Below, piece after piece: positions 60,227 through 63,400 of a stretch of DNA of 64,000 nucleotides. The translations under genes and the position numbers were made by a program. Below the pieces are notes generated by a model. The model did no database searches. It saw nothing but the letters and a program-made list of their open reading frames with translations, and had not been told where the DNA came from. Within the stretch, counting starts at the first letter, position 1, and each line of letters opens with the position of its first letter. This DNA comes from Candidatus Saccharimonadales bacterium (GTDB lineage Bacteria; Patescibacteriota; Saccharimonadia; Saccharimonadales; JAYRRP01): assembly GCA_041910055.1 (NCBI GenBank), contig JAYRRP010000002.1, positions 21,211 through 85,210 on the forward strand, given 5' to 3'.

Positions 60227-63157
60227 TTACTGAGAGTGTGAAACTTTTGTGAGACGAATATGAAGATCCTTACCTTCTATCGACACAGTAGTCGCAGGGG
60301 GTGATTGGGATGAAGACGCACTCACAAGCTCTGTGGCAAGCGTTTCATGACTAATGGTCTGTTTGTAGTGATCAATAGTTTTGGCAAGTTGTGAGTCCTC
60401 TGTATAAAGCTCAAGCACAATGCGATCGTCCACCTGCAGCCCGGCTTTCTTACGGGTATTCTGAATATGGCGAATAATTTCACGCATAGTGCCCTCCTGT
60501 CGAAGATCAGAAGTAATCTTCATATCAAGTTGGATATCCAAGGAGTGAATCGGTGACGAAATGTTGCCATCTGGCAGCAAGCTAACCGCTTTGACATTTA
60601 ACTCCTCTTTTACAATTTGCACCAAAGCTTCCCAGTGGAGACGCGAAGTGTCTAATCCCCCGGTGATAGTTGCCCTGGCAAGTGGTTGTCGCACCTTAAT
60701 ACCACCTTCTGCACGCTTGGCCAGACCCTCTGTAATAGCCATTCGAATAGAGGCCATATCATCTAAGAGTAATTCATCGATATGGCCAAATTCAGGCCAA
60801 TCCAGCAGGTGCACTGATTCACCTCCTGTGAGTTTTTGATACAGTTCTTCGGCCAGGAATGGAGTGAACGGCGCCATAATCATTGAAAGTTGCACCAGTA
60901 CGTAATGAAGCGTCTGGTATGCGTTATTTTTATCTTCGTCGTCACCTGACTTCCAGAAACGGCGACGGGAACGGCGTACGTACCAATTCGATGCATCATC
61001 TATAAATGGCAAGATCGGTTTCACTGCATTAGGAATATCATATGCATCCATATGTTTCCCCACTTCTCGAGTTAACTGATGTACTCGACTAATAATCCAT
61101 TGGTCAAGCGGGTTTTTACAGGTCTCACTTGGATCAGTGTGAGCACCCTCCCACTTCCAGTCATCAACCTCGGCATACATTGTGAAGAAATCATACATAT
61201 TCCACACCATGTTCAACTTCCGATATATGTCAGCCACGTCTTTATCGTGAACGATAAAATCTTCAGCATTTAAAACCGGTGATGCAAGCAGTAGAAACCT
61301 CAAACTATCAGCTGAGTACTGATCCATCAATTCATTCGGATCAGTGTAGTTACCATAACTCTTACTGAGTTTCCGCCCGTCTGAACCCAGAAGAGTACCG
61401 GTGGCGATTACCTGCTTGAAGGCGTTGCGGCCAAACAGGCCAACACTCACTGCATGCATGTAGTAAAACCATGCCCGTACCTGACCCACATATTCCACCA
61501 CAAAATCACCTGGAAAATTGGCCTCAAACTTTTCTTTGTTCTCAAACGGGTAGTGAAACTGGGCAAATGGCATTGACCCGCTCTCGAACCAGCAATCCAT
61601 TACCTTATCAATGCGCCGATAATGAACATTGTCCAGGTCAAATTCCACGCCATCAATCCAGGGCCGGTGATAATCATCTAGCACTACCCCTGAAAGTTCT
61701 TCGAGCTCCGCATAGCTGCCTACCACTTTGATACGTTCCTGTCCCTCGCTATCCGTTCCTTTCCAAACCGGCATTGCCGTTGCCCAAAAACGGTCACGTG
61801 ATAAATTCCAATCTGGCGCAGTCCGGATTGTATGTTCAAACCGGCCATGTTTAATATGCCCAGGAAACCAGCTGATATTTTCGGTATTCTCAACCAACAT
61901 TTGTTGTTTCTGACCCTCAATATTCATAAACCAACTGGGGTGAGCTCGGTACATTAACCGTGTGCCACAACGGTGGCAATGGGGATAGCTGTGTCTGATA
62001 TAGTCAATTTTCCACACTACCCCTTTTTCATACAAATTCTTGGCGATTGTTTTGTTTATTTCCCACACATTGCTGCCTTGCCAATCTCCCTCGGTATAAA
62101 ATCCGCTTTCATCAATCACGTGGACAACCGGCAAACCCTTCTCTTGAGCTAACGTAAAATCGTCCTCACCATATGCCGGCGCGATATGAACCACTCCTGA
62201 ACCCTCTTCAGAACTGACAAAATCAGCCAGCCAAATAAAATGCGCACCTTCACCACGGTCGACAAATAATGGTTGATACCTTTTCCCGGCTAACTCATGG
62301 CCTTTTACTTTGCCGATCACTTCAAAGTGAAGCGGTTGGTGGTGTTCATCAACCAAGACCTTGGGGGCAAGCTTCTCTGCCAAGATAAATGTCTCTTGGC
62401 CAAGTTTTACCTTCAAGTAATCGAGGTCACCGTTTATAGCCAGTCCCGTGTTTCCCAACAGTGTCCAAGGAGTGGTCGTCCACACCAACATGTAGGCATC
62501 TTCATCAACCAGTTTAAACTTCACAAAGACACTTGGGTCGGTTACCTCTTGGTATGTCCCTGTATCCATAGTCACTTCTGCCTTTGACAGTGGCGTTGCG
62601 TCTCGAGTGCAATACATAAGCACCCTTTCGCCTTCGTAAATTTTCCCTTGATCGTAAAGTGTTTTAAAAGCCCACCAAACTGATTCCATGTAGGATTTGT
62701 CCATAGTCTTATAGGCACCTTTGAAATCTACCCAACGACCAATCCGATCGATGGTGTCTTCCCATTGGCTGCCTGTCTGGATCATATTATCGCGGTTAGC
62801 TTTTATATAATCTTCTAAGCTTATTTTGGTGCCGATATCGCGACGATCAGTAATTCCAAGCTTTTTTTCGGTATAGGTCTCAGCCGGGAGGCCGTGACAG
62901 TCCCAGCCCCAAACCCTTTCTACCCGCTTGCCCCGCATCGTCTGGTAGCGCGGCACCGCGTCTTTAACAATAGAGCTCAATAAAGTACCGTGATGTGGTA
63001 CGCCGGTAATGAAAGGTGGGCCATCATAGAAAACATAGGCATTATCTTTGGAGCGGTTTTCTACGGATTTTTCGAAAGCCTTATGGGCTTTCCACTGCTT
63101 CACCAACTCTTTTTCGTATTCTATTGGTGGTTGCCGACTACCCGACTCAAACTTCAT
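60227..63157 (-). CDS. ileS: Isoleucine--tRNA ligase, type 2 (eukaryote/actinobacteria-like)
   Basis: I start it at ATG 63157 (MKFESGSRQPPIEYEKELVKQWK), preceded by a GGGAG SD at 63167-63163. HIGH region PPFITGVPHHGTLLSSIVKD (type 2 style), a KMSKS variant RKLSKS and a CP1 editing domain. Confidence 0.93.
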   Translation of the reverse strand: MKFESGSRQPPIEYEKELVKQWKAHKAFEKSVENRSKDNAYVFYDGPPFITGVPHHGTLLSSIVKDAVPRYQTMRGKRVERVWGWDCHGLPAETYTEKKLGITDRRDIGTKISLEDYIKANRDNMIQTGSQWEDTIDRIGRWVDFKGAYKTMDKSYMESVWWAFKTLYDQGKIYEGERVLMYCTRDATPLSKAEVTMDTGTYQEVTDPSVFVKFKLVDEDAYMLVWTTTPWTLLGNTGLAINGDLDYLKVKLGQETFILAEKLAPKVLVDEHHQPLHFEVIGKVKGHELAGKRYQPLFVDRGEGAHFIWLADFVSSEEGSGVVHIAPAYGEDDFTLAQEKGLPVVHVIDESGFYTEGDWQGSNVWEINKTIAKNLYEKGVVWKIDYIRHSYPHCHRCGTRLMYRAHPSWFMNIEGQKQQMLVENTENISWFPGHIKHGRFEHTIRTAPDWNLSRDRFWATAMPVWKGTDSEGQERIKVVGSYAELEELSGVVLDDYHRPWIDGVEFDLDNVHYRRIDKVMDCWFESGSMPFAQFHYPFENKEKFEANFPGDFVVEYVGQVRAWFYYMHAVSVGLFGRNAFKQVIATGTLLGSDGRKLSKSYGNYTDPNELMDQYSADSLRFLLLASPVLNAEDFIVHDKDVADIYRKLNMVWNMYDFFTMYAEVDDWKWEGAHTDPSETCKNPLDQWIISRVHQLTREVGKHMDAYDIPNAVKPILPFIDDASNWYVRRSRRRFWKSGDDEDKNNAYQTLHYVLVQLSMIMAPFTPFLAEELYQKLTGGESVHLLDWPEFGHIDELLLDDMASIRMAITEGLAKRAEGGIKVRQPLARATITGGLDTSRLHWEALVQIVKEELNVKAVSLLPDGNISSPIHSLDIQLDMKITSDLRQEGTMREIIRHIQNTRKKAGLQVDDRIVLELYTEDSQLAKTIDHYKQTISHETLATELVSASSSQSPPATTVSIEGKDLHIRLTKVSHSQ

Positions 63158-63400
63158 GTTCACTCCCTTTTTGAGGCTCCCTATAAAAAATGCCCCTTTA
63201 AGCCGGCCGGAATCCCTAGTGATATAAGGACGGTACCATCCGGCTTCCAAAAGAGGCAGTTCTCTAGAGGCACTTTATTCTCGCTATAACGGGCTGCCCG
63301 TCAGGTTCTACTAGGGAGGATTTCCCGTTCTTCCTGCTCCTTTGTGGGTGATAACCACTTCTGCTCTATTGCTCTAACGCAACAGACACGGATTTACAGT
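63158..63400 (-). promoter_or_regulatory. T-box leader (tRNA-Ile-sensing riboswitch) upstream of ileS
   Basis: On the minus strand, the T-box core is GCCGGAUGGUACCGUCC (plus 63228-63246); the consensus is GGGUGGUACCGCG. The UGGU bulge is flanked by GCCGG/CCGGC and GUCC/GGAU helices. An F-box-like CCGUUA lies at plus 63287-63292. AUCA sits in the loop of hairpin GUGG-uuAUCAc-CCAC (the AUC specifier candidate, plus 63350-63352). Confidence 0.7.

Follow-up and report, generated by a model that had tools for sequence, protein, structure and literature searches.

The 64,000-nucleotide stretch analysed here, referred to as the window, comes from a Candidatus Saccharimonadales bacterium (GenBank assembly GCA_041910055.1, contig JAYRRP010000002.1, positions 21,211 to 85,210) and carries on its minus strand the isoleucyl-tRNA synthetase gene ileS, the leader of which is described here. 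The ATG of ileS lies at 63157 and the stop codon of the upstream open reading frame (ORF) at 63416-63414, leaving a gap of 256 nt (63413-63158, minus strand). An initial annotation of the sequence had proposed that this leader is a T-box riboswitch, and all the motifs that it listed were found in place on the minus strand. The T-box spans approximately 63392-63185 (minus strand), its 5' edge reaching slightly beyond the range first proposed once a strand of the base helix and an extra hairpin are included. Its features, listed in the direction of transcription, are:

63392-63390 with 63340-63338, minus strand: base helix below Stem I, UCC/GGA (by eye, no formal count).
63385-63366, minus strand: extra hairpin P0, CUGUUGC-GUUAGA-GCAAUAG, obtained by folding, between the base-helix strand and Stem I.
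63358-63344, minus strand: ultrashort Stem I, GUGG / 7-nt loop UUAUCAC / CCAC, preceded by GAA; specifier AUC (Ile codon) at 63352-63350, followed by A at 63349.
63336-63302, minus strand: Stem II, with proximal helix CAGG/CCUG and distal hairpin GGGA-AAUCC-UCCC.
63332-63328 and 63312-63306, minus strand: S-turn motifs of Stem II, AAGAA and AGUAGAA.
63300-63283, minus strand: Stem IIA hairpin CGG..CCG, F-box CCGUUA (63292-63287) and IIB 3' strand.
63276-63271, minus strand: purine string AAAGUG (RRRxG motif), 5' of Stem III.
63270-63247, minus strand: Stem III, CC + AGAGA / loop ACUGCC / UCUUU + GG with an internal loop; AA follows at 63246-63245.
63258-63250, minus strand: 5' strand of the terminator lower helix, UGCCUCUUU, identical with the loop and 3' strand of Stem III and common to the two states.
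63244-63206, minus strand: discriminator hairpin, with helix A1 GCCGGA (63244-63239)/UCCGGC (63211-63206), bulge UGGUACC (63238-63232) and helix A2 GUCC...GGAU (63231-63212), basal pair G63231·U63212.
63199-63191, minus strand: 3' strand of the terminator lower helix, AAAGGGGCA, followed by U6 at 63190-63185.
63167-63163 and 63157-63155, minus strand: Shine-Dalgarno (SD) sequence GGGAG and ileS AUG, 3' of the terminator and outside the switch.

Orthologous leaders were collected with the N-terminal 252 residues of IleRS as query, which returned 80 loci from species-representative genomes at 72-84% identity, nearly all of them titled Candidatus Saccharibacteria, Saccharimonadia or Saccharimonadales. 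Model R1, a covariance model built in the present analysis for the leader's 3' half, matches the window once (63277-63185, 70 bits) and matches 72 of the 80 Saccharibacteria species loci upstream of ileS, with the motifs keeping their order and spacing; one of the eight loci lacking a match has no upstream sequence. The motif UGGNACC was located 60-240 nt (mostly 60-110 nt) before the start codon in 60 of the 80 loci, and in those 60 the motifs AGUAG and CCGUAA/CCGUUA and the hairpin GYGG-CUAUCAA-CCRC are found at matching distances. The element is carried by oral Saccharibacteria (L042, L051 and L068), and a metagenome pattern scan combined with a further model, R2, gave 10 more leaders of this type, every one of them with AUC, together with three canonical T-boxes that were used as controls. 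Conservation in 72 of 80 species and covariation in every helix tested make the element more than a product of chance. The UGGUACC core and the specifier hairpin, the two parts that the initial annotation had expected orthologous leaders to retain, are both kept.

In the decoding half of the leader, the Ile codon does lie in the terminal loop of a very small hairpin, as had been suggested. This Stem I has four base pairs, which are 99.6% paired with compensatory changes in four out of four (variants GUGG/CCAC, GCGG/CCGC, GCAG/CUGC, GCGA/UCGC, ACGG/CCGU and AUGG/CCAU), and is 100% paired in a MAFFT alignment of 43 decoding modules that was not fitted to any structure. The codon AUC occupies loop positions 3-5 in 70 of 70 assignable orthologues, even though AUA, AUC and AUU were all permitted by the search. 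It is directly followed by A in 69 of 71 sequences, and a U stands one position before it in 60 of 71, so that the loop, which in orthologues usually reads CUAUCAA, resembles an anticodon loop. The proximal helix of Stem II (99.4% paired, compensatory changes in four of four pairs) and Stem IIA (97.7% paired) are recovered from the same 43-module alignment, and the S-turn motifs AAGAA and AxUAGA(A) show little or no variation (alignment A6). Pseudoknot IIB comprises 3-5 bp in 34 of the 43 orthologues, where its place is fixed and its sequence differs (UCGA/UCGA, CGCU/AGCG, CCAG/CUGG, ACAG/CUGU and others). Inspection by eye also identified co-variants of the base helix (UGC/GCA, UCC/GGA, AAC/GUU, GAC/GUC, GCC/GGC and CAUU/AAUG), which, together with GA..GA flanks, suggests the usual kink-turn at the base of Stem I. 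A hairpin of variable sequence ends 1-4 nt before Stem I in approximately 46 of 71 orthologues. One locus fits poorly with this picture: L140:7291-7379 with its upstream sequence (minus strand) seems to be devoid of Stem II, Stem I being followed almost directly by the IIA/B pseudoknot, which is unexpected in a class said to require Stem II.

The sensing half is equally well preserved. In alignments A1 and A4 (alignment labels, not to be confused with helices A1 and A2) the purine string AAGYG is nearly invariant and the UGG and ACC of the bulge are invariant, and the family consensus around Stem III is AAGYG...AA. Eight of the nine pairs of Stem III show changes on both sides, with 93.3% pairing; sliding the partner columns gives no more than 61.5%. 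Helix A1 (99.5-99.7% paired) and helix A2 (99.6% paired) both display compensatory changes, and the basal pair of helix A2 is GU in 35 of 60 family sequences and AU, UA or GC otherwise. The RRRxG-Stem III-AA element and the A1/bulge/A2 discriminator have been described previously (PMC7583486), and the antiterminator-shaped element noticed in the initial annotation is this discriminator. As a side observation, the fourth base of the bulge is C in L006, L014, L029 and L049 (UGGC) and A in L022, L038, L056 and L070 (UGGA). Facing the discriminator base of the tRNA, it predicts G73 or U73 in the tRNA-Ile of these organisms.

At gathering thresholds, Rfam gave no match in the whole 64-kb window, T-boxes included, the gathering score of the T-box family RF00230 being 93 bits. 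A sensitive scan of 451 nt returned RF00230 as the sole plausible family at 17.9 bits (E = 0.075), a marginal result by itself, with AGUAG, the F-box, Stem III and GGAUGGUACCG of the discriminator hairpin aligned to the model; among 18 orthologous loci, 9 gave the family a score of 28-38 bits, and none of the other families reached E < 1. The initial annotation had named a score under the threshold as an outcome that would speak against a T-box; the match is there, yet at 17.9 bits it lies below 93. This shortfall is explained mainly by the model being centred on a long Stem I, 89 Stem I positions of the model being deleted in the alignment, and a sub-threshold RF00230 score does not mean that a T-box is absent. 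Every structural hallmark of a T-box that was tested for is present except the canonical terminator topology; the RF00230 threshold is also not reached. Judged by orthologue conservation, covariation and the published definitions of the short-Stem-I classes, the ileS leader is a genuine T-box in which Stem I, Stem II and the discriminator are present, and it is very probably functional as a sensor of tRNA-Ile. Neither Rfam nor R1 detected a second T-box discriminator in the 64-kb window.

The decoding half matches that of the Class III, or ‘ultrashort’, ileS T-boxes known from Actinobacteria (Nocardia farcinica, Mycobacterium smegmatis and M. tuberculosis; PDB 6UFM and 6UFG). Class III is defined by a short Stem I lacking the distal double T-loop, a specifier in an apical loop of 5-6 nt and dependence on Stem II (PMC10482949), and every member of the ‘ultrashort’ class regulates ileS (bioRxiv 10.1101/2023.02.28.530422). 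When compared by these published definitions, the saccharibacterial and actinobacterial leaders have in common the ileS target, a very short Stem I without the distal double T-loop (IDTM), the apical-loop specifier, a Stem II with S-turn, the IIA/B pseudoknot with F-box, and Stem III followed by the A1/bulge/A2 discriminator. They differ in the size of the specifier loop (7 nt in Saccharibacteria against 5-6 nt), in the host, here Saccharibacteria (Patescibacteria), in the extra hairpin that many of the saccharibacterial leaders carry 5' of Stem I, and in their output, which in Saccharibacteria would be an intrinsic terminator and not an SD sequestrator. The proposed likeness to actinobacterial ileS T-boxes thus holds for the decoding half and fails for the translational output. 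The synthetase itself is a type 2 IleRS, as had been suggested, with 693 bits against 8c8u and 633 against 1ile compared with 310 against the type-1 enzyme 1ffy.

With respect to the expression platform, the initial annotation had found no convincing terminator and had left open either an SD sequestrator or a terminator, on the basis of the GGGAG and the U6 run, both of which are present in the sequence. A terminator was recovered here by single-sequence folding, covariation and RNAalifold. The segment 63262-63180 folds into one long hairpin (-32.5 kcal/mol, z = -3.3) with U6 directly after it; its base is formed by UGCCUCUUU and AAAGGGGCA, and its top is the intact A1/bulge/A2 hairpin. In 61 of 61 orthologous leaders, a lower helix of 9-12 bp likewise encloses A1/bulge/A2 and adjoins 4-7 U, the U-run usually lying 14-40 nt before the start codon. 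All 12 pairs of this lower helix show compensatory changes and 94% pairing in a model-fitted alignment, in which slid controls reach at most 57%. Separate covariance models were used for the two states, MAFFT alone having misaligned the Stem III and terminator strands in some subfamilies, and the counts from fitted alignments were cross-checked by single-sequence folds and by RNAalifold on the MAFFT alignment. From this unfitted alignment, RNAalifold predicted the lower helix, helix A1 and helix A2 unguided, with compensatory changes in 17 of 21 pairs.

Stem III supplies its loop and 3' strand as the 5' strand of the lower helix, so that only one of the two helices can form at a time. The terminator state is favoured over the state containing Stem III and A1/A2 by a mean of 12.9 kcal/mol (range 4.3-19.3), the values for the window being -35.6 and -22.0 kcal/mol respectively. 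In contrast to a canonical T-box, the 3' half does not make a terminator by itself: the segment that starts at the A2 loop and ends at the U-run has a mean folding energy of -5.1 kcal/mol (-4.6 in the window) and forms nothing beside the U-run, whereas the same segment of the canonical control L092 forms a terminator of -18.8 kcal/mol that leaves Stem III intact. On this ground, we rejected a canonical terminator assembled from the A1/A2 3' strands. The most likely platform, from these folds and alignments, is an intrinsic terminator with the antiterminator nested inside it, whose competitors are Stem III and the purine latch rather than A1/A2, and there is good reason to expect that the leader acts by transcription termination. 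A simple terminator scan, in which loops are limited to 8 nt, missed this terminator for that reason, and it was also uninformative on how terminators are used across the window. Two window-specific repeats were also noted within this region: UGCCUCU occurs twice (63272-63266 and 63258-63252), its duplicate making the purine string and outer Stem III a second partner for the terminator strand in the minimum free energy (MFE) structure, and the repeat CCGGCCGG (63210-63203) permits a register slip that pairs the UGG of the bulge.

On the basis of these features, we propose that the ileS leader is probably a tRNA-Ile-sensing T-box that controls transcription attenuation through the choice between Stem III and the lower helix. 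In the default situation, the 5' strand of Stem III would give way to the longer strand downstream, the long hairpin would be completed and RNA polymerase would terminate at 63190-63185. Under isoleucine shortage, uncharged tRNA-Ile would pair through its GAU anticodon with AUC and through its 3'-ACCA with the UGGU of the bulge, and, once bound, it would lock Stem III together with the purine string onto the stack of A1/A2 and tRNA. Once docked, Stem III would withhold the common strand from the terminator, allowing the polymerase to pass the U-run into ileS; charged tRNA would fail to lock Stem III and termination would go ahead. Published structural and single-molecule work indicates that Stem III and the purine string dock on this stack only if the tRNA 3' end is free; they are known to be needed for binding of the tRNA 3' end and to ‘latch on’ only to uncharged tRNA (PMC7583486), and with a mimic of charged tRNA, Stem III is positioned away from the antisequestrator (PMC12647780). 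We infer tRNA binding, termination and readthrough alike from sequence and predicted structure. We lean towards the view that the switch works through competition with Stem III and the purine latch, with less assurance than for attenuation as such. The strictest version, in which A1/A2 is formed in both states and the signal passes solely through the latch competing with a terminator that nests the sensor of the tRNA 3' end, is in our judgement evenly poised between right and wrong.

A number of observations weigh against this proposal. In the window itself, Stem III, with its 7 bp and internal loop, is weak, and pseudoknot IIB amounts to only 2 bp (GC/GC). Approximately ten leaders, termed type B (L006, L010, L012, L015, L023, L027, L034, L052, L060 and L066), keep the nested terminator and have no Stem III hairpin, so competition with Stem III cannot be the whole story. 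Their lower helix starts at the purine string, UUAAGUCCC pairing with the GGGGCUU before the U-run, and no obvious anti-terminator strand is apparent; the competitor in these leaders, if there is any, must be the purine string itself. The metagenomic leader L147:44-127 (minus strand) has the same ultrashort Stem I (GAGCGGCUAUCAACCGCGA) and a canonical terminator derived from the 3' strand of helix A1, UUCCAAU-GCAA-AUUGGAA followed by U7, with Stem III left intact, and both wirings therefore exist among ultrashort-Stem-I leaders. The RF00230 scores are far under the gathering score in the window and in the orthologues. The structures being counted had been used in fitting alignments A3 and A4. 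As the sequences are related, the covariation counts do not represent independent events. Scans for tRNA genes in the window and in 71 loci found none, and hence no tRNA-Ile for comparison with the expected GAU anticodon and A73. We also know of no demonstration of intrinsic termination in Saccharibacteria.

Among other explanations, the one that survives best is a remodelling of the canonical kind, in which AAGCCGG, by means of CCGGCCGG, re-pairs one register downstream and the UGG of the bulge pairs with CCG, so that the OFF state hides the acceptor-binding site. The MFE structure of 63262-63180 shows exactly this slipped register, which is moreover compatible with the lower helix. However, neither the CCGGCCGG repeat nor the slip is conserved: helix A1 of the orthologues does not shift register, with 99.7% pairing and an unpaired bulge in the alignment of the terminator state, and the inability of the 3' half to form a terminator on its own speaks against canonical remodelling as well. 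The register slip was consequently rejected as a general mechanism, and we regard remodelling of this kind as unlikely.

A translational T-box like those of the actinobacterial relatives would also be conceivable, whereby an alternative helix sequesters the SD when uncharged tRNA is lacking and the U-run is incidental. The Class III/‘ultrashort’ decoding architecture is so far known only from translational ileS T-boxes, the GGGAG sits 6 nt before the AUG, and in the MFE structure of the whole window leader the CUCCC of Stem II pairs with a downstream GGGAG-like stretch. Against this, the SD lies at least 18 nt 3' of the U-run and outside all conserved helices; in the MFE structures of 47 orthologous leaders, it pairs with T-box nucleotides in 5 and is fully unpaired in 23. 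The hairpin and U-run are kept in all 61 leaders and the stem co-varies. With no conserved pairing between SD and T-box across the 47 leaders, SD sequestration was rejected; of the two platforms put forward in the initial annotation, the terminator stands and the sequestrator, its SD being in no conserved pairing, does not. We consider a translational switch here to be very unlikely. The least probable alternative, with hardly any weight in our estimate, is a T-box relic whose hairpin and U-run serve as a constitutive attenuator, an RNA-stability element or a terminator of the upstream gene in the absence of any tRNA switching: A1/A2 is identical in both predicted states and the type B orthologues are without an obvious competitor, but conservation over 72 species, with compensatory changes, of AUC and its following A, UGGN, the basal G·U, the purine string, the S-turn motifs and the F-box would not be seen in a relic, and a constitutive terminator of 35 kcal/mol ahead of an essential single-copy gene would be deleterious.

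The proposed attenuator, with its choice between Stem III and the lower helix, can be set beside two known systems. Like the canonical transcriptional T-boxes of Class I/II (Bacillus subtilis tyrS and glyQS; RF00230), the leader places an intrinsic terminator upstream of the SD, carries the RRRxG-Stem III-AA element, the UGGNACC bulge and the basal G·U, and has a default OFF state predicted to be much more stable than the ON state (PMC7583486 for the canonical case). Unlike them, it lacks both a long Stem I and the IDTM, has an RF00230 score of 18-38 bits (threshold 93) and possesses a terminator that encloses A1/A2 and uses the 3' strand of Stem III, whereas the canonical terminator uses the 3' strands of A1/A2. 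The second comparison is with overlapping-hairpin attenuators such as the trp leader (1:2 versus 2:3), in which one common strand, here the 3' strand of Stem III, has an upstream antiterminating or a downstream terminating partner. In the saccharibacterial leader, it is proposed that the choice is set by tRNA stabilising 1:2 through tertiary contacts and not by a stalled ribosome or a protein, and the A1/A2 hairpin is inserted in the 2:3 helix as a large structured element.

No paper joining T-boxes with Saccharibacteria, Patescibacteria or the candidate phyla radiation (CPR) came up in literature searches, and, in the parts of the T-box literature that were consulted, no description was found of a terminator enclosing the antiterminator while competing with Stem III. 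The TBDB database ran its translational ileS model in Actinobacteria only. Given this restriction and the low Rfam score, standard pipelines would miss the element, which places a conserved regulator of the riboswitch class in Saccharibacteria (Patescibacteria/CPR). A long Stem I with a tRNA-elbow-binding motif is called generally required for transcriptional T-boxes in reviews, and the element described here would counter this published generalisation. A 2015 abstract by Sherwood and colleagues is said to have called ‘many’, not all, of the leaders translational, and transcriptional short-Stem-I cases may reportedly be noted in it.

The leader may also be viewed as a natural experiment on T-box function, with the sensor of the tRNA 3' end intact in both predicted states and Stem III alone contested, so that the role of Stem III and the purine latch in charge sensing becomes directly testable (PMC7583486; PMC12647780). 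If the signal does pass through the latch alone, then an ultrashort, elbow-less decoding module would be fast enough for co-transcriptional control, the latch and not the stability of A1/A2 would be the switching element of the T-box, and the Saccharibacteria, epibionts with reduced genomes and a dependence on their hosts for amino acids, would have kept one tRNA-sensing riboswitch on an essential synthetase. According to a recent perspective, Patescibacteria are in need of inducible expression tools (PMC11665869), for which this native, compact tRNA-responsive leader of approximately 180 nt is a candidate expression part.

Upstream of the T-box, one further feature was noted by eye:

63411-63406, minus strand: putative -10-like box UAUAGU, overlapping the end of the upstream ORF.

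TATAAT/TATACT-like boxes were likewise seen by eye 8-25 nt upstream of the base helix in orthologues. UAUAGU is put forward as a putative promoter element of the leader; a consensus promoter scan of the leader found no full promoter. The small upstream ORF (63701-63417, minus strand) lies between a ribonucleotide reductase gene and the ileS leader and gave a sub-threshold match to a thioredoxin fold (18 bits).

In approximately 12 loci (L003, L004, L007, L008, L029, L040, L046, L047, L069, L072, L079 and L093), the T-box is situated 400-900 nt before ileS with another small gene in between, and such intervening genes would come under isoleucine control. Pfam analysis of the intervening ORFs identified a cupin in one case (L047) and nothing in two others, L040 included; the intervening gene of L069 is HAD-like.

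A protein search with the IleRS returned, among the matches listed, only Saccharibacteria-like sequences at 67-100% identity; the identical protein is present in one NCBI contig and one Logan assembly, and the next relatives are 74% identical.

Three further elements were noted. Two canonical long-Stem-I T-boxes lie upstream of alaS (L101:7839-7913 and L082:700-772), and the GGUAC strand beside their U-run pairs with the GUACC of the T-box bulge itself, a further kind of terminator wiring. The third, L160:70-148 (minus strand), has a GC-rich discriminator with a weak score of 25.6 bits, lacks a U-run and carries an SD 7 nt before an AUG. It may represent a translational T-box of some high-GC organism; the ORF that follows does not resemble IleRS.

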